Below, piece by piece: positions 1,880 through 16,622 of a stretch of 27,099 nt of DNA; the first letter of the stretch is position 1; each line of letters begins with the position of its first letter. Where the stretch lies: NCBI RefSeq assembly GCF_004010195.1, contig NC_057759.1:3723044-3750142 (forward strand), given 5' to 3'. Below the pieces are notes generated by a model, which ran no database searches, was not told where the DNA came from, and saw only the letters and a list, made by a program, of their open reading frames with translations. The DNA is from Chiloscyllium plagiosum (Eukaryota). The position numbers and the translations under genes are program-made.

Positions 1880-2209
1880 ATCAACTCTCCAAACCGAATA
1901 TCAAAGCGTTGTCAGATTCCGATGCCAATTCAAGCAGGGACATTGTATCGATTTCCTGCCAAGGTGATATTCGGCCCAGTGGAGGAATATTCTCCTTTTA
2001 CAATAGTCGGAGGAAAGATTTTAGACAGGAATATCATGTGACTGGTCTTGAAGATACTGCGGTCATTACCATCAACATCCATGAACATTCCTCTGCAGGA
2101 AACTACAGTTGTCGATATAAAACAGAGGTAAACGGACGTTCCATTCTTTCCCCGTTCAGCCAATCTGTTTCAGTCACAGAGAAAAGAAAGGACGATCACA
2201 CATCAAAAG
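1880..2209 (+). CDS. Exon: C2-type Ig domain plus short stalk
   Basis: Acceptor aacag| at 1879, donor AAG|gtaatt at 2210; 330 nt, phase 1-1 as typical of Ig exons. Motifs: A strand LSKPNI, VSISC (Cys 1957-1959), FSFY in place of the C-strand Trp, AGNYSCRY (Cys 2110-2112; Cys residues 51 apart), SPFSQSVSVT end motif. Overlaps ORF 1909..2262. Confidence 0.92.
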
Positions 2210-5200
2210 GTAATTATATGTTCGTGAAATTCTTCCTCATTTTCATAAATACATGCAGGTAAAGAAATTTACTGCTAGTTTTTTTTAATCCAATTTGATA
2301 GTTGCAAGAAATTCTGTTCAATGATTGATAGTGCTTCAGGCTTTATGTCTGTCCTCTGCCCTTGATGTAACTTGATGCAATTTGATCAAAGGTCTGAGCG
2401 TGGGTTATAAGCCCTTTCTCCTGTTAGGCGTCTCCCTAATTCTGAATTGGATGACGTCATCTTGATGCACAAACAATGCCAGATACTACTGCCATTGTTC
2501 AATGGGATATAACACTTGGGCATTGACAGAGACTGTCTGTGCATTGTCAGGCATAACCATTCGACAATCCAGGGCCCCAATTTTCGTAGCACGGTTAATT
2601 TTGAGTTGCACAGAAGGATGCATTTTTGTGAATTCAACAGAGCAGCTGAAACGTCTCCGAGGTTATCCCCCAGAGTAGGGGAAATAATCAAAATAACAAA
2701 CAGTGGACATGCCCAGTGAATGCTTTTGTGCAAAAATGGATGAGTGGGAGATTTCAAATTTCATGTCCTACAGTCCCGAAACAGGCCCCTCCACTCATAA
2801 AATATGTGCTAATGAATAACAGCTTATTTATTCTCTACTCCCACTGGCCAACCCATAGCCTTTTTTGCCTTGGCATTGTGAATACGTATCCACAGCCCCC
2901 TTCAATGGGATGAGAATTTATGCCTCTCCTACCATTACAGGCAGTGAGTTCCAGATTTCCCACAACCCTTTGGGTCTTCACAAAATCCTCTCATCGCTTG
3001 TAAACTGTCTGCCCGTTATCTTCAATCCATTTCCCCCTCACCGTCTCCCCAGTCATTGCTACAGTCAAGTGGCAAAGTTTCTTCTGTCAAACTAATCCCA
3101 GCCAGCATCATTTTATGGATGTCAATCATGTCACAATCTTTGAATATTCTTTGTTCTAAGGAGAATAACGCAGTCTGTCCAATCTCTCTCCACGAAAACT
3201 CTCCAGGCCCCCAAGGCAACATTCTATTAAATCTTCCTCTACAGCCACACGTAGTGACTGTTATGGGACAGACCAGATATTCGCTCCTACTCAATTCTCA
3301 GGAACAGTAAGCTTTTAAATATTGATTAGCTATATTGCTTGTTTAAGTTGGAATGTATGTCCAAAAGAGGACCATCTACTGTTTCAAAATGGATATTATT
3401 CTCAGTGGTGAAGCTGAAAATGTGTTGCTGGAAAAGCGCAGCAGGTCAGGCAGCATCCAGGGAACAGGAGACTCAGGAACAGTAAGCTTTTAAATATTGA
3501 TTAGCTATATTGCTTGTTTAAGTTGGAATGTATGTCCTTCTTCAGGGCTTATGCCCGAAACGTTGATTCTCCTGTTCCCTGGATGCTGCCTGACCTGCTG
3601 CGCTTTTCCAGCAACACATTTTCAGCTCTGATCTCCAGCATCTGCAGACCTCACTTTCTCCTCATTATTCTCAGTGGGACATACTGATGTTTCTTTGCCG
3701 TTCATTAATGTGATTCATTCTTTTGCAATACATAGCTGCCCAGAAGAGATTATATATGTTCGTCGGACTGGGATGTGCTGCTGTGATCATTGTTTTACTT
3801 GTGGTGCTGTGCCTTCTTATTGTCAAGAAAGGTAACTTATTCAAAAGTATAATATAATTGGTTAGGAGGGATGCGATAGTATTGGGAGAGGGTGAAGAGG
3901 AAGATTTACTAAGGGACAGTGGGGAATCTTGAACTTGCTGCCTGAAAAAGTGGGAGAAAACGGTTTAGATGTGCCGTTGCCATGCCAAGGCAATCGGTCA
4001 AGCGCTGAGGAAATGGGATTAGAAACGTTTTTGACCAGCACAGATCAGCATGGGACTGAGGTGTATTTTCCTGTGCTGTAGACTTGTATAACTGTGACAG
4101 TTTAGTGGGAAACTTGGAAACGTGAACAGATAGTTGTGATCAAGGTTTATGTCGTATTAATATTGTTTGAAAATATAGGTTCAATCAGGCCCTGGGAGTG
4201 TTTTGAACAGAGGTGCCTGAGAGTGTTTTGAACAGAGGTGCCTGAGGGTGGGGGTGTGTGTGGAGGCACATAATTCCTCTAAAGTGGCATCACAGGTAGA
4301 CAGAGTGGTGAATAAAGTGTTTGGCACACTACCCTGTATTGGTGAGAGCCTTGAGAACAGGATTTGGGACTTCTTATTGTGGCTTTAAAGGATATTGTTT
4401 CGGCCACTTTTGAAATAATACATAGAGTTCTGGTCATCCTGCTATAGGAAGGATGTTGTTAAACTAGAATAAATATATTTAAACAATTACAAGGAAGTTG
4501 CTGGGACTGAAGGGTTTGTGTTATAAGGTGAGGCAAGATGGACTGGGATTTTTTTTTTCTCAGGAGTGTCGAAGGCTGAGGGGTGATCTTATGATGGTAA
4601 GATAATCTAAGGTATGGATAGGGTGAATAGATAAGGTCTTTTTCAAAGAGTATTGAAGTCCCAAAATAGAGAGCATAGGTTTATGGTGAGGGGAGAATGC
4701 TGCAAAAGGGACCTCAGGTTCAACTTTATTGAGTAGAGGCTGGTGAGTATATGGAACGGGTTTGCAGAGGAAGTGGTAGAGGTGAGCAAAATTACAACAT
4801 TAAAAAGACATTTGGATAGGTACATGGACAGGAAAGTTCTACAGGGATATGCACCAAATGCAAGTAATTAGGACGAGTAGAGTTTGAGAAATCTGGTCAG
4901 CATCGACAAATGGGACTTAAGGGCCTGTATGACTCTAAGGTTCTAAAGGTTTTAGTTTTGTGTGTTCAGATCAGCTAGACACAGAGTTTACTTTCATTTT
5001 GGTTTATTCAGTGAATGACACTGGCGCATCTGGAGATTTGTTCTGTTCATATTCTTTGAAATGGGCTCTTTAAAATACTGATGTAAAATGTTCAGTTCAT
5101 TAGACAGAAAAGGTAGACGTGAGGATAAGTAGCAGTTGATAGGTACAAAAAGGAGTCCGAAAAGAATGTTTTTTTCAGAAAAATGAAGGAGAGGTCAATT

Positions 5201-8200
5201 CACTTTTAGAGACGAGGTTCTGAAGAGCAGAGGTAATAGATCCTGACCTGAACAGTGATGCCCACATTACATGAATGTATTTAAACAATAGCCATCAGAC
5301 TTGAAAGACAATTAACGATAAGTCAATCACTAACTTTCAATTGTAACTCCAGAAATTAGGCATAGGTTGCAAGAGCTAGTACATGGAGCCATCAGGCATT
5401 TTGTCCTTAACTCTGCAATAGTGCCCCAGTAACATTCAGATATAGAGAGACGTTTTTGTGTTGGCAATGAGGGCCTCATAGTAACCATTCAGTACATTTG
5501 TATTTTTTAGCCCTCTTGGCCTTTGATACATTCATAGGAGGTGTCCAATCGCGGTCGCTTTCCCTCCATACAGAGCCACAGCTTAACTCAAAAAGACAGG
5601 GGATGGTGTATTCTCAAATCTAATAGAGAAGCGTTTGTGAAGTAAAGCTGTGAAGGGGACAGGAGCCAGAGGCAGGTATGTGGAGTTAGTCCACTGATCA
5701 GCCATGATGTTCTTGAATGGCACAAAAGGCTTGAGGGCTGAACAGCCTGCTGATGTCGCTACTTTCCTAAGTGCAAAAGCAATGGGTGGCCGATAAACAA
5801 AACAAAATATTTGGCAACTGCACCAGAATGTATTGGGTCAAAATTACAATCTCTCTACCTTGACTTCAACCAGAGTTAGAATCCTAGTTAGAACCAGTCC
5901 AGCCTCTTCACCCACTCCAATCTCTCGCCCTCACAACGCACAGCCCTCCACTCCCTCTGCGCCAACCCCAACCTCACCATCAAACCTGCGGTCAAAGGGG
6001 GTGTGGTGGTCATTTGACGCACTGACCTCTACAGCGCTGAAGCCAGGCACCTACTCGAATGCACCTCCTCCTACGACCCCCTCAAACATGACCTCACCAA
6101 GCCATCATCTCCCAGACCATACACAACCTCATCATCTCAGGGGATCTCCCACCCACATCGTCCAAACCCATAGTTCTGGAACCTCACACTGCCAGATTCT
6201 ACCTCCTACCCAATATTCACAACCCTGACCTACCCAGGCTGACCTATCGTCTCAGCCTGCTCCTGCCCCACTGAACTGATCTCCACCTACCTTGATACTG
6301 TCCTGTCCGCTTGTTTCAGGAACTCCCTACATTCGTTTGGGAGACCACACACGCCTTCCACTTCCTCCAAGACTTCCGTTTCCCCAACCACCAATGCTTC
6401 ACCTTCACCATGGACATCCAATCTCTCTCCACCTGCAATCCCCATGGCCAGGACCTCCAAGCCCTCCATTTATTCCTCTCCCGTTGTCCCCACCAGTACC
6501 CTTCCACTGACACTCTTATTCATTTGGCTGAACTGGACCTCACACTCAATAATTTCTCCTTCCATTCCTCCCACTTACTCCTGACAAAAGGAGTAGCCAT
6601 GGGCACCCGCATAGGCCCCAGCTATACCTGTCTCTTTTTCGGCGACGTAGAACAGTCCATCTTCGAGAGATGCACCGGCACCACTCCCCACCTCTTGCTC
6701 TGCTACATTGATGACTGCATCAGTGCCACATCGTGCTCCCATGAGAAGGTCAAACAATTCATAAACTTTGCCAACACATTCCATTCCAAACTTAAAATCA
6801 CCTGGACCATCCCTGCCACTTCACTCCCCTTCCTAGACCTCTCCAACTCCATCCAGAAGGACCGACTTAACACTGACATTTTACAGACCCATCAACTCCC
6901 ACAGCTACCTGGATTACACCTCCTCCCACCCAACCTCCTGATTAAATGCTATCCCATGTTCCCAATTCCTCCACCTCCGCCACATCTGCTCTCAGGAGTA
7001 TCAGTCCCACCACAGAACACACCAGAAGACCCAATTGCCCTCCCACATGTTTGAAGATGCCCTTCAATGCATCTCATCCACGTCCCGCACGTCCGCCCTC
7101 ATCTCCCCTCCAACTGCAGTAAGTACAGAACCCCTCTGCTTCTCACCTTCTCTTGCACCAACATCCGCATAAATCACATCATCTGCCGACATTTTCGCCA
7201 CCTACAAACGGACCGCACCGCCAGGGATGTAGTTCCCTCCCAAACCCTATCTGTTTTCCAGAAAGACTGTTCCCACCATAACTACCTGGTCAGGTCCACG
7301 CCATAACAAGTGACCATCCCCTCCTTGCATCCTTGCACCTTCCCCTGCCACCGCAGTAATTGTAAAACCTGCACCCACACCTCCCCCCTTACATCCACCC
7401 AAGGCCTCATAAACCTTCCACATTCATCAAAGTTTCACCTGTACTTCGAAACATGCTATTTATTGTTTCTGTTGCTCGCGATGTATTCTCCTCTACATTA
7501 GGGAGGCTGGATGCCTTCTCACAGAGTACTTTAGACAACATCTCCGGGCCACTCACACCAAGCCATTCCACCACCCAGTGGCCGAATATTTCAACTCCCA
7601 CTCCTGCTCTGCTGAGGGCATGCAGGCCCTGGGCCTAGAACAAAGAATATAGAAATTCTAGAGCCTCCTCCGTCACCACTCCCTCCCACCCGACGTCTTG
7701 AAGAAGAAAGCCTTATCTTCCACCTTGACACTCATAAAACACCATGTCCATCAATATGGACTTAACCAGTTTCCTCATTTCCCTTACCTGCACTTTACCC
7801 CAGTTTCAACCTTCCAGCTCAATACCGCCCTCCTTACCTGTCCCGCTTGTCAATCCTCCTTCCCACCTATCCGCTCCACCCTCGACCCTGACCTATCACC
7901 CTTACGCACACCTCCATCCGCCTATTGCACTCTCAGCTCCCTTCTCGCCAATGCCACCTCCTCCCATTTATCTCTCCACCCCTGATGGTCTCGGCCTCAT
8001 TTCTGATGAAGGACTCCAGTCCTAACCGTCGATTTATCTGCTCCTTGTATGCTTTAAATATATTGTCAAGCACTCCGTTCAGTGCAGTCATTTCACAAAC
8101 TTCACGAGGGAGCAGTCTTTCTGAAGCAGTTAGGATGGATCACTCACTCACTGTCCTTAACAATATCCAGTCTCCACAGGGCAGGCCAGTTGCTCAGTGG

Positions 8201-11200
8201 TTAGCACTAACGCCTCCCAGCACCAATGATTTGGATTCAATTCCTTCCTTGGGTGACTTCTTTCACACTAGTTTTTGATGTTATAAAGCTGGAAAGGGTT
8301 CAGAACAGATTTACCAGAATGTTGCAAGCAAAGGAGAGCTTGAGTTCTGAGAGACTGGGGTTTTTTTTTCAAGAGAATTCCGACACAGTGGAAACAGGCC
8401 ATTGGGCCCAATATGTCCATACCGACCGTTTGAAAAGCATTCCACTGAGGCCCATACTCCTACCTGTTCTCGATTACCCTGAATTCCACATAACTAAAAC
8501 GCTTAACCTACGCATCCATGGATGCTGTGGGCAATTAGCATCACTCCTGGACTCAGTGTTTAAAACTGCTGTCTCACAGCGGCAGGGACCCAAAAGCTGT
8601 TCCACCCGCTGGCGATTGCCTGTGTGGAGTTTGCACATTCTCCCCTTGTCTGCATGGGTTATCTCCCGGTATTCAAGTTTCCTCCCACGAACCAAAGATT
8701 TGTAGGTTAGGTAAATTGACCATGCTAAATTGCTCATATAGTACAGGCTAGGTGGATTAGGTAAGGGAAACGTAGGGTTAGCGGGACAGGGTATGGATTT
8801 GAGATCTTCTTTAGAAGGTCAGTGCGGCTTTGGTGAGCTGAATGGCTTGATTCTACACTGTAGGACTTCTAAGTCGTTGATCTTTCATTGGAAAGCAGGA
8901 GGTTAAGAGGTGGCCTTATTGCGATTTATAGATAACTATAATCAAGATGAAAAGCGGGTGTCATTTCGCTAAGGTGGGGCGGGGGTTGGGTGGGAGTTCA
9001 AGATTGCAGGGCATATTCTTAAGGTTAGAGGAGAAATATTTTAAAATGACTTGAGGGGTATTATCGTTATCACAGAGTGTCTTTTGTGTGGAATGAACTT
9101 CAAGAGGAAGTGGCGTGTGTGGATATAGTTGCAATGTTTAAATGACACTTCCATAAGCACATGATAAAGAAATGTCTGGAGATATATAGGTCATGAGCAG
9201 GCAGGTGGGACAAGTTTAGTTTGGGACTATGGTTTGGCCTTGAACTGGTTGGAGAGAAGGTCTTGTTTCTGTGCTGTATGACTCTATGACTATCTGAATG
9301 GTGTTTGCATGTTCTCCTAATTGACTGGTTGGATTTCTATCTACTGTCCAAAGTTGTGCAGGTTAGCCGGATTGGCTTTATTAAATTATCCCGAAGTATT
9401 CGGGGTGTGTGGTCTCGGTGGATTAGCTGTAGGAAAGTTGGGTATGCAGGCAGAGGGTCAGGGTAGGTCTGGCTGGAATGTTCATTGGAAGGGGCAAATG
9501 GCCTGTATCTGCGCAGCGGGGGGTACTAAGCTGTAACAGGAAAAGCATGACTTTTTTGTCTTCTATTCTGCTCCTTATGTTTCGAATGTTCATATTCTTA
9601 ATGCGTATTGTTTTTTTTTCTTTTTGGGAGATTTCAGTTTAAATGTTTGATTCTGTCCAGTTTGACACCAAATGTTTTGGATTCATAAAAAAAACGAAAT
9701 TGCAGCAGAAACTGAAGAATTCTTGCAGTGTCTATGGAGAGTGGGAGAGAAACAGAGTTAACATTTCAAGTCCATAGCGCCATAAGAAATGGGAACAGGA
9801 GCAGGCCTTTCACTCCATAGAGCCTACTTCATCATTCAATAGAATTGTGGCTGATCGGACACTGCTCACATTCTCTTTCCTGCACCTCTCCTTGATTCCT
9901 TGACTGATGAATAAAATGTCTTTTGCAGCCTTAAAAACACATGAGGGCTCTGCCTTACCCGCCCTTGTCCCCCAAAACGCGAAGGCGCACAGATCTCTTT
10001 GGCAAAGACCATAAGACTGTAGGGCATAGGAGCAGAATTAGGCCATTCAGTCCATACAGCCTGCTCTTCCATTCGATCATGGATGACATGCATTTCAATC
10101 CCATGCTCCTGCCTTCTCCCAGTAAGCCTTGATCGACATTCCAATCATGAACCTATAGAAATACAGTCATTTAAAAAAATATATTCCACACCTTCTGCGG
10201 CAATGAGTTCCATAGGTTCACCATCTTCTAACTGAAGAAATCCTCTACTCAGTTCTAATGAGCCGTCCATTCACCATGAGGCTGTGCCCTCCGGTCCTTT
10301 TCTCTTTTGCTCGTGGAAATTCGACTCCTTGGCCGCAATATTCTGGCCTCTCAGTATTCTGTGACCTTCAATCTGGTCTCCAGCCTCATCCTTCTGAACT
10401 CCATGGAGTATAGACACAAAGTACTCAATCGCTTCCCAAAAGAAAGGCACTTTATATCCTGGATCGCTCTTGGAGACCCCTTCCAAGGCCAACGCATCTT
10501 TCTTAGATACAGGGCCGAAATCTGCTCGCAATTTTCCAAATGTGGTTTGATCAGAACCTTGTACAGTCTCATCAGTACATTTCTGGTCTTGCATTCTATC
10601 TGCTCAAAATGAAAACTATCGTTGCATTTGTTTTCCTAACTGCCAACTGAACCTCTCTGTTAACCTGAAGAGAATCCGGAACTCAGAGTCCCATGTCACT
10701 TTGTGCTTCAGATTTCTATTTGTAATGGTATACAGGTAATGTCAGACATGCTGTGCTTCTTTACCATTCTCCGTTTTAATTCTATTATCTAACACCCTGC
10801 AGTTCTTTGTTTTGTATTATTGACATTGACCATCATGTTTGAGGCATTTCAACTTTGCATTATTGTTTCATATCTCACAGGTCAGAATAAACGTCAAAAT
10901 ATTCCGAGGTGAGGATGTTATATGACTCGTGATAATCTGGCATTTGACAATATGCAACATTTCGAGAAATGTTTATTAAAACATTGTTATATCGAGTATT
11001 TGTTCCTTATTGATTTTTATGACATTAATTCCCATTACATCGGGAGAACGTTTGAGCCAATATATGTCTTTATTTTACAGGACTGCATCCACAGCAGTTC
11101 AAATTACAGACAGCAAAGACCAAGATGGCATTTGTAAGTATGTTGCAGAAGTTAGTGACTGGTTGTAATGACTGCGATAAAAAAGTAACATCTTTATTTG

Positions 11201-13591
11201 TGATTATTAAGGTGATAAATGTGTAAATGGTTTTAGTGGAGAATTCCTAAACCTCATTCCTGTTCATTGTATGATTATTCACTCTCAGTTAAGTGAGAGT
11301 CTCAACATCAGAAACAAGCATTGAAATAACTTGGTTCCTGTTGTAGTGGATACTGCAGAGGTCAAAAAGCTAAAGAAAATAACACCAGAAATGCAGGAGA
11401 ATCTCAGTCGGTCTGGCAGAATCTGTAGAGAGAGAGTGACAGCATGAATGTTTCTAGTCAAGTAACCCTTCTTGAGTAGTGCTAGCTAAAGGTCTTCCAG
11501 ACAAAACACAAGCCATTTAATTTGGGACACAGTGAATATCTTTTTGGAGACTCACTTCAAGTTAATTCAAGCATAGCATCTTAGAAACAAGCGTTTGAGG
11601 TGATGCCATTGCGTTTGCGTTCACTCCCAATCCCAATCTGTTTAACTCATAAGGCAATCCCTCCATTCCAAGGCAAATCCTGTTCAACAGAATATAAATT
11701 CAAAGATATTATTTGTCATCATTTTAATAGCCTACATGCTTGGTAAGGGTGTTTCTCTCGAATGGCTTGTGAGTGATGTCGACGAAGTGGGTTCTATTCA
11801 CCGGCTTCCTGAGGACTCCATCTCAACATCTCTCTGTTCTGAGCAATGGCCACCTTGAGTTTGAATCACCAGATATCCCTCTCCCACTCCAAGGCAAGGG
11901 TGTGGCGAGAGATTTTAAAATATTTCGACACATTTTATTTTGGGCGCCAGGTTTTAGCACACAAAAACTATTGACAACATAAATCACCAAGTCTCATTGC
12001 TGAAATAGGGAAAAATAAATCTAAATATCTGTGCTTCCTTTATACCAGACGACAACGCCAACTTGATCTATTGCAACTCCATGGTAAGCACACCATTATT
12101 AGTCAAACTCAAAGCATTTTATTTTATTATTTTCTTGTTATACAAAGTCTAATTAGTTTATCCTGTAGACAGAGAGAGTCTTAGGATAAACAATATACTT
12201 GGAGGGTGACGAAGATTAGGACAAGTATGGATTAATTAACAGAGAATGGGAAACGGGGAGGGATGCAGAAAATCAACACAAACAGCGGAACAATGGGCAG
12301 ACGGTGAAGAGAGTGGGACTAAAGTCAATGAAATAATGAGGTAGAGATAAACATAGGAAGCACATTACAAAGTGAAAGAGTCATAGGTTCGTACAGCATG
12401 GAAACAGAGCCTTCATCCCAAATCTTCCATGCCAGCCATGTTTCCTAAACCAAACTCGGTCCAATTTACCGAACTCGGTATTTGTCCCATATCCCTCTAA
12501 ATATTTCCTATTCATGTATCTGCCTAAATGCTTTGTAATTGAATCCACCTCTACCACTTCCTCTGGGAGCACATTCCATACACAAATCATCTTCAGCTCC
12601 ATTTTAAATCTTCCCCCCGACCTTAAACCTATTCCTTCTAGTTTTGGACTCCCTCACTATGAGGAAGAAACCTTGACTATTTTCCGTTTCTATGCCCCTC
12701 ATGACTTTACAAACCTTTATAAGATTACCCTTCAGCCTCCTACGCTCCAGGGAAAAATGTCCAGTTTATCCCGATAAGTCAATCATTAAATCCCAGTAAC
12801 ATTATTGTATTATTTTCTGTACCCTCGTTGGTTTAATAACATCTCTCTTAACGCAGGGCGACCTGAATTGTACGCAGTATTCTAAAAATGGCCTTGAAAT
12901 TGTCTTGTACAGCCGCGACATGACGCCCCAATTCCTGCACGCAATGTGCCAGTCATTGAAGCCAATTGTGGAAACACAACCTTCATCACCCTGTCTGTCT
13001 GTGATAGCACTTACAGGGAACTATACACCTACATTACTAGTGCCTTCTGGTCAACAACACTCCCCAGGACCCCACCATTAACTATGTAAGTCCTACCCTG
13101 GTTTGTCTTACCAAAATACAATACTCTGCATTTATCCAAATTAAACTACACATGTCACTCCTTAGCTCATTGGCCCATCTCATCAAGATCCGATTGTACT
13201 CTTAGATAAACTTCTTCACAGATTCTACTAATTTTGATGACATTCGCAATCTTACTAACCACTGTGATCTCAGCTAAATTGAGAGCCTGCAAAAAAAAGA
13301 GCAGAGTGTGGAGGTAGTGAGAAAGAGATTGACAGGAACCAAAAGGTTGTGATAGATGGACAAATTATATTTAAAAAGCCTTTCTAGAGGAGCAAAATCA
13401 CAAGATATCAATTTATACTTTACAAACACTACTTTCTATGTTGTTCAATGCAGGGCGAGTATTCCAAAGTACACGACAACAATTGTGAGAGCGTTACTTA
13501 TGCTGCGTTGAACATAGAAGTTTCGAATCAAAATACATCTGCCTCTGTCGTCAGGGAAGAGCTGTGCATGTATATGGACGTGAAAACATAA
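1880..13591 (+). CDS. 5'-partial multi-exon gene: type I transmembrane inhibitory Ig-superfamily receptor (LRC/LILR-like C2 Ig domain, TM, ITIM tail); join(1880..2209,3736..3831,10881..10908,11081..11133,12049..12083,13454..13591)
   Basis: Manual splicing: all six exons have canonical AG/GT ends and compatible phases (1-1, 1-1, 1-2, 2-1, 1-0, 0-stop). Product (~226 aa): (D)QLSKPNIKALSDSDANSSRDIVSISCQGDIRPSGGIFSFYNSRRKDFRQEYHVTGLEDTAVITINIHEHSSAGNYSCRYKTEVNGRSILSPFSQSVSVTEKRKDDHTSK-A-AQKRLYMFVGLGCAAVIIVLLVVLCLLIVKK-G-QNKRQNIP-R-TASTAVQITDSKDQDGI-Y-DNANLIYCNSM-GEYSKVHDNNCESVTYAALNIEVSNQNTSASVVREELCMYMDVKT*. No start codon or signal peptide in the window. Confidence 0.88.
2880..3280 (-). mobile_element. 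Old CR1 fragment
   Basis: Minus-strand remnants LFSLEQR..DMIDIHKM (ORF 3022..3294) and ggcagtgagttccagat resemble the CR1 3' region. Confidence 0.55.
3297..3537 (+). repeat. Exact 66-bp direct repeat (3297-3362 and 3472-3537)
   Basis: ctcaggaacagtaagcttttaaatattgattagctatattgcttgtttaagttggaatgtatgtcc occurs twice; the second copy is inside the Penelope-like insertion. Confidence 0.95.
3409..3663 (+). mobile_element. Young, 5'-inverted Penelope-like terminal-repeat insertion with 14-bp target-site duplication
   Basis: TSD attattctcagtgg at 3395-3408 and 3664-3677. Perfect 60-bp inverted repeat 3412-3471 / 3568-3627. gggcttatgcccgaaacg terminal motif is shared with the copies at 15411 and 22531. 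Confidence 0.88.
3736..3831 (+). CDS. Exon: transmembrane helix
   Basis: catag|CT...AAG AAA G|gtaact; 96 nt, phase 1-1. Encodes AQKR-LYMFVGLGCAAVIIVLLVVLCLLIV-KK: 25 uncharged, mostly hydrophobic residues followed by a basic stop-transfer. Confidence 0.92.
3895..4095 (+). mobile_element. Old CR1 3' end
   Basis: CR1-like 3' text ending ..ttcctgtgctgtagacttgtataact. Confidence 0.5.
4150..4945 (+). mobile_element. CR1 LINE 3' fragment
   Basis: aaagtggcatcacaggtagacagagtggtgaa, aggctgaggggtgatctt, aaaagacatttggataggtacatgg and tail gggcctgtatgactct. Confidence 0.85.
4196..4245 (+). repeat. 25-bp tandem duplication inside the CR1 copy
   Basis: gagtgttttgaacagaggtgcctga x2 (4196-4220, 4221-4245). 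Confidence 0.9.
5600..5770 (+). mobile_element. CR1 3' end (second subfamily), decayed
   Basis: gatcagccatgat...gaatggc...ggcttgagggctgaa; same tail type as 24780-24870. Confidence 0.55.
5890..8055 (+). mobile_element. Penelope-like retroelement (RT + GIY-YIG endonuclease), frameshifted
   Basis: ORF 6311..7054 has PLE RT motifs FTMDIQSL, GVAMGTRIGPSY, YIDD. A Cys-rich linker (CHRSNCKTC) precedes GIY-YIG-like CTSKHAIYCFCCSRCILLYI near 7440-7500. A C/T-rich 3' region leads to a terminal ctgatgaagg motif at 8003. Confidence 0.92.
8373..8540 (-). mobile_element. HE1-type SINE 3' half
   Basis: acagtggaaacaggccattgggccc...ataccgacc...gggcaattagcat is the reverse complement of the HE1 3' region. 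Confidence 0.75.
8547..8872 (+). mobile_element. HE1-type SINE, near full length
   Basis: ctcagtg..ctgctgtctcacagc, tgtgtggagtttgcacattctcccc, tttcctcccac..caaagat..ggttagg, ..ttctacactgtaggac. Confidence 0.85.
9690..9775 (-). mobile_element. Penelope-like terminal-repeat remnant (second family)
   Basis: gagagaaacagagttaacatttcaagtcca resembles the reverse complement of the terminus at 15299-15350. Confidence 0.5.
9780..10715 (-). mobile_element. Two adjacent CR1 3' fragments (~9780-9960 and ~10007-10715)
   Basis: Reverse tails cataagaaatgggaacaggagcaggcc and cataggagcagaattaggccattcag; RLYKVLIKPHLENC..LYLRK in ORF 10351..10572. Confidence 0.85.
10881..10908 (+). CDS. Cytoplasmic micro-exon 1 (28 nt; GQNKRQNIPR)
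   Basis: tttcatatctcacag|GT...CCGAG|gtgagg; phase 1-2, bridging the TM exon to the next exon in frame. Confidence 0.8.
11081..11133 (+). CDS. Cytoplasmic micro-exon 2 (53 nt; TASTAVQITDSKDQDGI)
   Basis: gtctttattttacag|G...GGCATTT|gtaagt; phase 2-1. Confidence 0.83.
11380..11478 (-). mobile_element. Penelope-like terminal-repeat remnant
   Basis: agaaatgcaggagaatctcagtcggtctggcagaatctgtagagagag...gtttctagtcaagtaacccttc. Confidence 0.55.
12049..12083 (+). CDS. Cytoplasmic micro-exon 3 (35 nt; YDNANLIYCNSM)
   Basis: cttcctttataccag|AC...TCCATG|gtaagc; phase 1-0. The first Tyr codon is split T|AC across the intron. Confidence 0.83.
12378..13262 (-). mobile_element. CR1 LINE 3' fragment in the last intron
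   Basis: Reverse tail gagtcataggttcgtacagcatggaaacag; VWNVLPEEVVEVDSI..HLGRYM (ORF 12381..12602). Confidence 0.9.
13454..13591 (+). CDS. Terminal coding exon with ITIM (VTYAAL) and distal ITIM/ITSM-like motif (CMYMDV)
   Basis: ttgttcaatgcag|GGC; 45 codons then TAA at 13589-13591. VTYAAL at 13493-13510 matches (I/V/L/S)xYxx(L/V); CMYMDV is at 13565-13582. Confidence 0.88.
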   Translation, partial: GEYSKVHDNNCESVTYAALNIEVSNQNTSASVVREELCMYMDVKT

Positions 13592-13885: not shown

Positions 13886-14119
13886 CACAAAGATTTTAAT
13901 TTCTGCTTAAGAGTTGCTTCTGAAGGTTTCCATCTCAATAAGCAATGTCTACGCCAAAGGGATCCAATGCTGCGAAGGTTCATGTCCGTCAGAACATTCG
14001 AGAATTATTAGACAGCAGAAAACAATTCAGAACACGTGAAAGCATGCAGATACGCAAGAAAATTACAGCAAAACAAACGCATAACATTCTAAACAATTAT
14101 ATAAAAATAGAAGTAGTTG

Positions 14120-15689: not shown

Positions 15690-16622
15690 NNNNNNNNNNN
15701 NNNNNNNNNNNNNNNNNNNNNNNNNNNNNNNNNNNNNNNNNNNNNNNNNNNNNNNNNNNNNNNNNNNNNNNNNNNNNNNNNNNNNNNNNNNNNNNNNNNN
15801 NNNNNNNNNNNNNNNNNNNNNNNNNNNNNNNNNNNNNNNNNNNNNNNNNNNNNNNNNNNNNNNNNNNNNNNNNNNNNNNNNNNNNNNNNNNNNNNNNNNN
15901 NNNNNNNNNNNNNNNNNNNNNNNNNNNNNNNNNNNNNNNNNNNNNNNNNNNNNNNNNNNNNNNNNNNNNNNNNNNNNNNNNNNNNNNNNNNNNNNNNNNN
16001 NNNNNNNNNNNNNNNNNNNNNNNNNNNNNNNNNNNNNNNNNNNNNNNNNNNNNNNNNNNNNNNNNNNNNNNNNNNNNNNNNNNNNNNNNNNNNNNNNNNN
16101 NNNNNNNNNNNNNNNNNNNNNNNNNNNNNNNNNNNNNNNNNNNNNNNNNNNNNNNNNNNNNNNNNNNNNNNNNNNNNNNNNNNNNNNNNNNNNNNNNNNN
16201 NNNNNNNNNNNNNNNNNNNNNNNNNNNNNNNNNNNNNNNNNNNNNNNNNNNNNNNNNNNNNNNNNNNNNNNNNNNNNNNNNNNNNNNNNNNNNNNNNNNN
16301 NNNNNNNNNNNNNNNNNNNNNNNNNNNNNNNNNNNNNNNNNNNNNNNNNNNNNNNNNNNNNNNNNNNNNNNNNNNNNNNNNNNNNNNNNNNNNNNNNNNN
16401 NNNNNNNNNNNNNNNNNNNNNNNNNNNNNNNNNNNNNNNNNNNNNNNNNNNNNNNNNNNNNNNNNNNNNNNNNNNNNNNNNNNNNNNNNNNNNNNNNNNN
16501 NNNNNNNNNNNNNNNNNNNNNNNNNNNNNNNNNNNNNNNNNNNNNNNNNNNNNNNNNNNNNNNNNNNNNNNNNNNNNNNNNNNNNNNNNNNNNNNNNNNN
16601 NNNNNNNNNNNNNNNNNNNNNN
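15690..16622. other. Assembly gap (933 N)
   Basis: Run of n; both flanks are young repeats. Confidence 1.

Follow-up and report, generated by a model that had tools for sequence, protein, structure and literature searches.

The question raised by this locus is where a shark receptor obtained its cytoplasmic tail. In a stretch of 27,099 nucleotides from Chiloscyllium plagiosum (referred to below as the window, in which positions are counted from the first letter) a 53-nt exon, a 35-nt exon and a terminal exon follow an Ig domain of LILR/KIR-like appearance, and the tail that they encode recalls CEACAM1-L in sequence and exon geometry. According to the original prediction this could be an ancient tail module, either shared by the CEACAM and LRC receptor families or shuffled between them. 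The analysis favours another answer, to which we assign a probability of about 0.72: the gene, LOC122544524, codes for a two-Ig, LILR/KIR/CHIR (LRC)-type receptor, likely with the role of an immune brake, whose tail was likely inherited together with the ectodomain and not taken from CEACAM. Coordinates marked C50 refer to the chromosome (8 Mb) that carries the gene.

Structure of LOC122544524

The nine-exon model of the gene agrees letter for letter with the 345-amino acid RefSeq protein XP_043539765.1 of Chiloscyllium plagiosum, which is named 'uncharacterized'. The product has a split leader with a 36-nt mini-exon, two Ig domains, an uncharged transmembrane (TM) segment and an ITIM tail. 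The two leader exons (31 nt, C50:3716524-3716554; 36 nt, C50:3718008-3718043) and the exon of the first Ig domain, D1 (291 nt, C50:3720870-3721160), are located upstream of the window. The remaining exons are on the + strand of the window: the second Ig domain, D2, with the stalk (330 nt, phase 1-1, 1880..2209), the TM exon (96 nt, phase 1-1, 3736..3831), whose hydrophobic span contains no charged residue, and cytoplasmic exons of 28 nt (phase 1-2, 10881..10908), 53 nt (phase 2-1, 11081..11133) and 35 nt (phase 1-0, 12049..12083), followed by the phase-0 last coding exon (13454..13591), which closes with the stop codon. The 28-nt exon has the same size in paralogs, and the next exon is also 53 nt long in the paralog LOC122544523; in LOC122544524 it starts with a split Arg codon and ends with a split Tyr codon. 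Two tyrosine motifs, with a tyrosine spacing of 24, are encoded on the + strand by the last exon. VTYAAL (window 13493..13510) is a canonical ITIM by sequence and fits the published consensus S/I/V/LxYxxI/V/L (PMC13278318). The distal ITIM-like CMYMDV (window 13565..13582) is non-canonical because of the Cys at position -2, where several relatives have Ser.

The 53-nt, 35-nt and last exons have AG/GT splice ends. Joints connecting the 28-nt, 53-nt, 35-nt and last exons, with TM sequence in front, were found in assembled contigs of three of four runs; the fourth run consisted of raw reads, of which about 6% were sampled and none could be placed. The contig runs are not recorded as RNA, but their contigs skip GT..AG introns. 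The junction from the TM sequence to the 28-nt exon was at a loose contig end in runs X15 and X19. The transcript runs past the stop codon to at least window position 14000. The three tail exons, which had been predicted with these sizes and phases, are thus confirmed by splice sites, the RefSeq model and spliced contigs, but the predicted chain had missed the 28-nt 1-2 exon between the TM and the 53-nt exon.

According to the RefSeq annotation, the TM exon is absent from one kind of isoform of the gene, the 35-nt exon from another and D1 from a third. Omission of the 35-nt exon in isoform X3 causes a frameshift, with loss of both distal tyrosine motifs. The three kinds would be soluble, signalling-dead and one-domain forms, respectively. 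In one contig of run X19 the 36-nt leader exon was joined directly to the 53-nt exon (window 11081), skipping both Ig exons, the TM exon and the 28-nt exon. The intron after the TM exon contains a decayed reverse-transcriptase-like retroelement frame, judged by eye (window 6296-7054, +), and there is an assembly gap of 933 bases at window 15690-16622.

Ig domains of the LRC type

When a profile of 15 family proteins was searched against PDB, PirB ranked first (1e-30), followed by FCRL5 (7e-29), LILRB2 (1e-20), LILRB1 and KIR3DL1. CEA was 23rd (1e-11) and CEACAM1 40th (3e-9), 19-21 orders of magnitude below PirB. With eight carpet-shark proteins the search returned PirB (3e-8), CHIR-AB1 and LILRB2, and there was no CEACAM among the 12 matches; the best PDB match of D1 alone was CHIR-AB1. 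Foldseek, queried with a weak structure model (pLDDT 56.6), found ten matches at E<=0.001, all of them to OSCAR, NKp46, PirB, LILRB2 or LILRB4 (one LILRB2 entry is titled only 'Protein receptor'), the leading alignments having 13-21% identity. In a tree of 61 domains, built on few columns, D2 grouped with 17 of the 21 LRC-type domains of marsupials and turtle (support 99/95), which came from opossum, koala and leatherback, and D1 grouped with the remaining four (92/87). Twelve shark CEACAM domains and the FCRL-like domains stood apart from both, at a modest support of 88/69.

The leader points in the same direction. Its division over two exons is shared by KIR3DX (PMC8562567), and in CEACAM genes the leader is completed within the N-domain exon (PMC13278318). 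No CEACAM-type IgV N domain is present in the full nine-exon model, where two leader exons are followed by two C2-type domains. As a rule, the second leader exon of LRC genes is 36 nt long, as it is here. Taken together, these comparisons indicate that the Ig domains of LOC122544524 are of the LRC type. The PDB ranks, the Foldseek matches and the domain tree thus bear out the predicted LRC-type rather than CEA-type character, and an ordinary CEACAM, with its Ig domain among CEACAM C2 domains, does not emerge from the tree.

Because FCRL5 came close behind PirB, the family could also be regarded as related to FCRL/LITR, or as an independent shark paired-receptor lineage, and not as an orthologue group of the tetrapod LRC receptors. 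We consider this improbable: D2 falls with domains of LRC type from marsupials and turtle and away from the shark FCRL-like and CEACAM domains, the top Foldseek matches are LRC receptors, and the second leader exon of FcR-like genes has 21 nt (PMC2413239), against 36 nt in the shark gene.

Comparison of the tail with CEACAM and LRC-type tails

The original prediction had compared the tail with the human CEACAM1 tail sequence, and had derived a shared pattern, VTYxxLN(I/F)E..TSAS..YxxVK. Exon 8 of human CEACAM1 has 32 nt. Among 15 family tails, eight of them from carpet sharks, YAxL and YxxVK were present in all 15, and only YAxL(N) and YxxVK were fixed, whereas TSAS occurred in two and LN[I/F]E in three. 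Thus the tyrosine motifs of the pattern, and the spacing of 24 in this gene, hold, but TSAS and LN[I/F]E are not conserved in the family. The pattern VTYxxLNF occurred 172 times in the genome, less often than its control, and the two places inspected contained no receptor gene.

A profile was built from the 15 family tails and used to score other tails, the CEACAM tails among them being those of sharks. Ten shark CEACAM tails scored 0-6.3 bits, the animal's own CEACAM reaching 0.1 bits. The four ITIM-type tails among the shark CEACAMs (0-2.3 bits) were equalled in 14-93 of 500 shuffles. Nine non-core LRC-type tails scored 9.2-23.6 bits, each with 0 of 500 shuffles and with an opossum IGSF1-like protein at the top (23.6), although these nine were chosen from 55 scored tails drawn from matches of the family profile, which makes the comparison partly circular. 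Last exons of FCRL-like genes scored 14.8 and 5.3 bits, which may be within reach of any tail with two tyrosines. With the reverse profile, made from four shark CEACAM tails, three of 12 family tails were at or below 1% of shuffles (best 10.7 bits), and the tail of LOC122544524 was equalled in 14 of 300.

The 53-nt exons of LOC122544524 and of shark CEACAM showed neither nucleotide nor protein similarity above shuffles: 18 of 53 bases are shared, a value attained by 289 of 2000 shuffles. The isoforms of a leatherback relative diverge at V-Y versus V-F, which suggests that a phase-1 intron interrupts its Tyr codon, as it does in LOC122544524. An ESM Atlas search with the TM segment and tail yielded nothing but sub-0.9 matches (C1orf162, LST1, SCIMP and SIT), which serve as no more than leads. 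The prediction of a tail relationship or exchange specific to CEACAM was therefore not supported at this point, since shark CEACAM tails were near noise on the family profile and tetrapod LRC-type tails were clear of it.

The CEACAM gene of the same shark

Chiloscyllium plagiosum has an intact-looking CEACAM gene of its own (C47:5085650-5154997, +), about 85-150 kb from LIPE, which also maps to chromosome C47. An N exon and seven IgC exons were seen, together with the TM exon and three tail exons. The IgV N domain has CEACAM1 as its best PDB matches, and other sharks have orthologues of the gene among their CEACAM-like RefSeq models. Its TM exon (118 nt, phase 1-2) is followed by exons of 53 nt (2-1) and 44 nt (1-0) and by a phase-0 last exon, the tail exons being placed with the C. 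punctatum protein P0219 and not with reads. The 53-nt exon opens in a split Arg codon, as does that of LOC122544524. In this tail the first motif, YSQP, is non-canonical and the second is of the form TxYxxL; other sharks have ITAM-type CEACAM tails. Additional CEACAM N exons were located on C47 at 4.95 and 6.6-8.2 Mb, and the 200 kb on the opposite flank of LIPE contained no CEACAM.

Since the 53-nt 2-1 / 1-0 layout is present in the CEACAM of the same genome, the match in layout is real. In print the first cytoplasmic exon of CEACAM1, given as 53 nt in the original prediction, is 53 bp in snake, dog and human, and its skipping yields the short form, CEACAM1-S (PMC13278318 among other sources). 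The short RefSeq form of LOC122544524 skips the 35-nt exon instead; in both genes a frameshifting exon skip can remove the motifs. The exact 53-nt 2-1 exon with its split-Arg start in both genes is an observation that speaks against the favoured reading; its rough chance is 1 in 21 for a single comparison.

Could an LRC-type ectodomain have acquired a CEACAM1-type tail by shuffling, or could the exchange have gone the other way? The common 53-nt 2-1 exon would fit such an event, as would a whale-shark CEACAM-like record possibly located on the same chromosome as members of the family. That record (P0210, with several N domains) and the family records P0004, P0005 and P0009 show the same longest contig figure, 9,681,543, possibly reflecting linkage or else an assembly effect. 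In Chiloscyllium plagiosum, 13 of 15 CEACAM N-domain matches were on C47 and two were unplaced, none being on C50. Shark CEACAM tails failed to match the family in either direction of the profile comparison, the motif matches are specific to certain paralogs, and the matching tail is carried by tetrapod LRC-type proteins. Moreover, the TM exon is of phase 1-2 in CEACAM, in contrast to 1-1 plus a 28-nt exon in LOC122544524. Shuffling is thus very unlikely, and the tail-profile scores appear largely to refute it.

Searches for the markers that flank the LRC (TTYH1, LENG8, CNOT3 and PRPF31) placed none of them on C50. CNOT3 was on C39, Tweety and SAC3/GANP matches could not be assigned to TTYH1 or LENG8, and genome searches for PRPF31 and the cornifelin family found nothing.

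Exon phases in FCRL-like neighbours

LOC122544524 is flanked on C50 by FCRL-like genes. Multi-Ig genes of this kind, at C50:3840697-3866115 (-), 3925169-3927287 (+), 4129186-4143731 (-) and 2502959-2520101 (-), are interleaved with the LRC-type family; one of their Ig exons matches FCRL5 at 1e-36, and one gene copy has a stop closing its TM exon. Tail exons of 31 nt (1-2) and 35 nt (1-0), then a two-tyrosine last exon in phase 0, were seen in the copies near 3.84-4.14 Mb; a 2-1 exon was not found in this region, which has gaps and a stop in one TM. In the apparently intact gene at 2.50-2.52 Mb an ab initio chain was obtained, with its tail exons at C50:2502959-2515175 and consisting of TM (1-1), 31 nt (1-2), a 2-1 exon with two candidates (23 or 65 nt), 57 nt, 66 nt, 32 nt (1-0) and a last exon (0). 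The tails of LILRB genes have the phases 1-2, 2-1, 1-0 and 0. Together with the split Tyr codon in leatherback, these observations suggest that the tail phase scaffold is not specific to CEACAM; it appears to recur in the FCRL-like neighbours. These resemble LOC122544524 in chromosome, in scaffold and in a YATL-type last exon, and differ from it in having different Ig domains, five or more in number, and extra symmetric tail exons.

A possible, though doubtful, alternative is that the 2-1/1-0/0 tail cassette goes back to one ancestral module that predates the split of sharks and bony fish, with CEACAM, LRC-type and FCRL genes as its heirs and with sequences that have since diverged except for the tyrosine motifs. 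Tentatively, one ITIM receptor living before the gnathostome split would then be the ancestor of all three families, its cassette still visible in sharks, the 53 nt kept exactly in CEACAM and LRC-type genes, and FCRL-like genes interspersed in sharks among the members of a true paired LRC-type family. Three families of one genome can be aligned in this manner (CEACAM, TM/53/44/last; LOC122544524, TM/28/53/35/last; FCRL-like, TM/31/(2-1)/57/66/32/last), shark, snake, dog and human all retain the 53-bp CEACAM exon, and weak residual scores were seen on the reverse CEACAM profile. However, the 53-nt exons are not alike above shuffles, the FCRL-like exons are ab initio picks with an ambiguous 2-1 exon, a junction can have only three phases, and the comparison was made post hoc. 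A length of 53 bp also recurs: the KIR cytoplasmic exon of this size named in the original prediction is found in print as exon 8. The phase of this KIR exon is a different one.

An ancestral cassette is compatible with an LRC-native tail as far as function is concerned, and differs from it on the origin of the layout. Of the predicted shared or shuffled ancient module, the layout, common to a true shark CEACAM, stands, and the CEACAM-specific sequence tie does not. With TSAS and LN[I/F]E not conserved, shark CEACAM tails near noise, an extra 1-2 exon, the same scaffold in FCRL-like genes and the CEACAM on another chromosome, a CEACAM-specific graft is unsupported. The ITIM tail is best read, from these comparisons, as native to the LRC-type lineage.

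Relatives and paired forms

Genome searches gave 13 D2 and 16 D1 matches, mostly on C50 and many of them with stops, seven last-exon matches and six activating-type TM exons at E<1e-5. A paralog in head-to-head orientation with LOC122544524 (C50:3691225-3707400, -), about 16-32 kb before the window, is likely a pseudogene: its D2 and TM exons are both interrupted by stops, the 36-nt exon has lost its acceptor, and the last exon is frameshifted. An orphan last exon of the LRC-type family was seen at C50:3679078-3679197.

The profile of the eight carpet-shark proteins retrieved 688 representatives at E<=0.001. Twenty relatives taken from the best 150 of these came from sharks, rays, a chimaera, turtles, opossum and koala (two without taxon shown), with automatic RefSeq names such as LILRB3/B5, LAIR1, IGSF1-like and A1BG-like, and CEACAM5-like for one ray record. 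When the tail alone was used in a word-seeded search, only seven carpet-shark proteins emerged among nine candidates. Two relatives, P0035 with an ITIM tail and P0043 with an Arg in the TM and a short tail, have 94% identity across 211 residues of the ectodomain and form a paired set of inhibitory and activating type. Two large proteins, P0033 of sawfish (3218 aa) and P0034 of electric ray (2368 aa), contain many repeats of the family's Ig pair and short tails. The Pfam family Ig_C19orf38 (HIDE1) matched D2 of P0035 and P0043 above the cut-off and the D2 of the window weakly, which suggests that C19orf38 may be a distant relative.

Activating partners in the LRC are described as having an NxxR TM, a DYT-like start and an acidic residue closing the TM (PMC6557307). 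The activating-type relatives have a DHT-like start and an acidic TM end, with Arg but no Asn in P0043, P0054 and P0092 and with His or Gln in carpet sharks. In Chiloscyllium plagiosum the activating-type TM exons are located at C50:3944911, 817132, 1753960 and 5477061, C98545:23584 and C61561:706; in the three that were read out, the Arg by which tetrapod LRC receptors pair with FcR-gamma is replaced by His or Gln.

Discussion

By analogy with LILRB and PirB, ligand binding would cluster the receptor, Src-family kinases would phosphorylate both tail tyrosines, and SHP-1/SHP-2 would dock there with their tandem SH2 domains. Activating signals would thereby be damped, those of the activating-type twins among them. 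The putative ligand may, as a guess, be a conserved host surface or matrix protein. LOC122544524 is thus most likely, we infer, a SHP-1/2-recruiting inhibitory receptor paired with activating-type relatives. It resembles LILRB, PirB, inhibitory KIR and CHIR-B in its C2-type Ig domains, split leader, uncharged TM, small-exon ITIM tail and paired activating-type relatives, and tails of LRC-type proteins from marsupials and turtle score on its family tail profile. It differs from them in low identity, extra cysteines in D1 and the non-canonical distal motif, and the activating TMs of carpet sharks are mostly without Arg.

With CEACAM1-L and shark CEACAM the gene has in common the 53-nt 2-1 exon, the short exon of phase 1-0 that comes next, and a last exon that begins in phase 0 and encodes two tyrosines. 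In contrast to CEACAM it has no IgV N domain, two leader exons, a 1-1 TM exon followed by 28 nt, a 1-0 exon of 35 instead of 44 nt, and a locus on C50 and not beside LIPE on C47. In our reading, the likeness to the human CEACAM1 tail comes from the two SH2-binding motifs, with chance matches added in a spacer of low complexity, on an exon-phase scaffold that is common to several ITIM receptor families.

According to a 2014 survey, sharks have no homologues of LRC or FCRL genes (PMC4016189), and a 2019 study calls the origin of the LRC unclear (PMC6557307); further literature cited comprises PMC5112662, PMC3628338, PMC13262535, PMC1458963, PMC2110893, PMC4810170, PMC2490704 and PMC6288254. A literature search, with most subscription journals outside its scope, found no description of this shark receptor family. 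RefSeq has already given relatives automatic names of the LILRB-, LAIR1- or IGSF1-like kind. The tail comparison shows a route to testing whether CEACAM, LRC and FCRL receptors share a signalling cassette. As an expressed, intact LRC-type inhibitory receptor within a paired elasmobranch family, LOC122544524 would push the LRC family back to the base of the jawed vertebrates.
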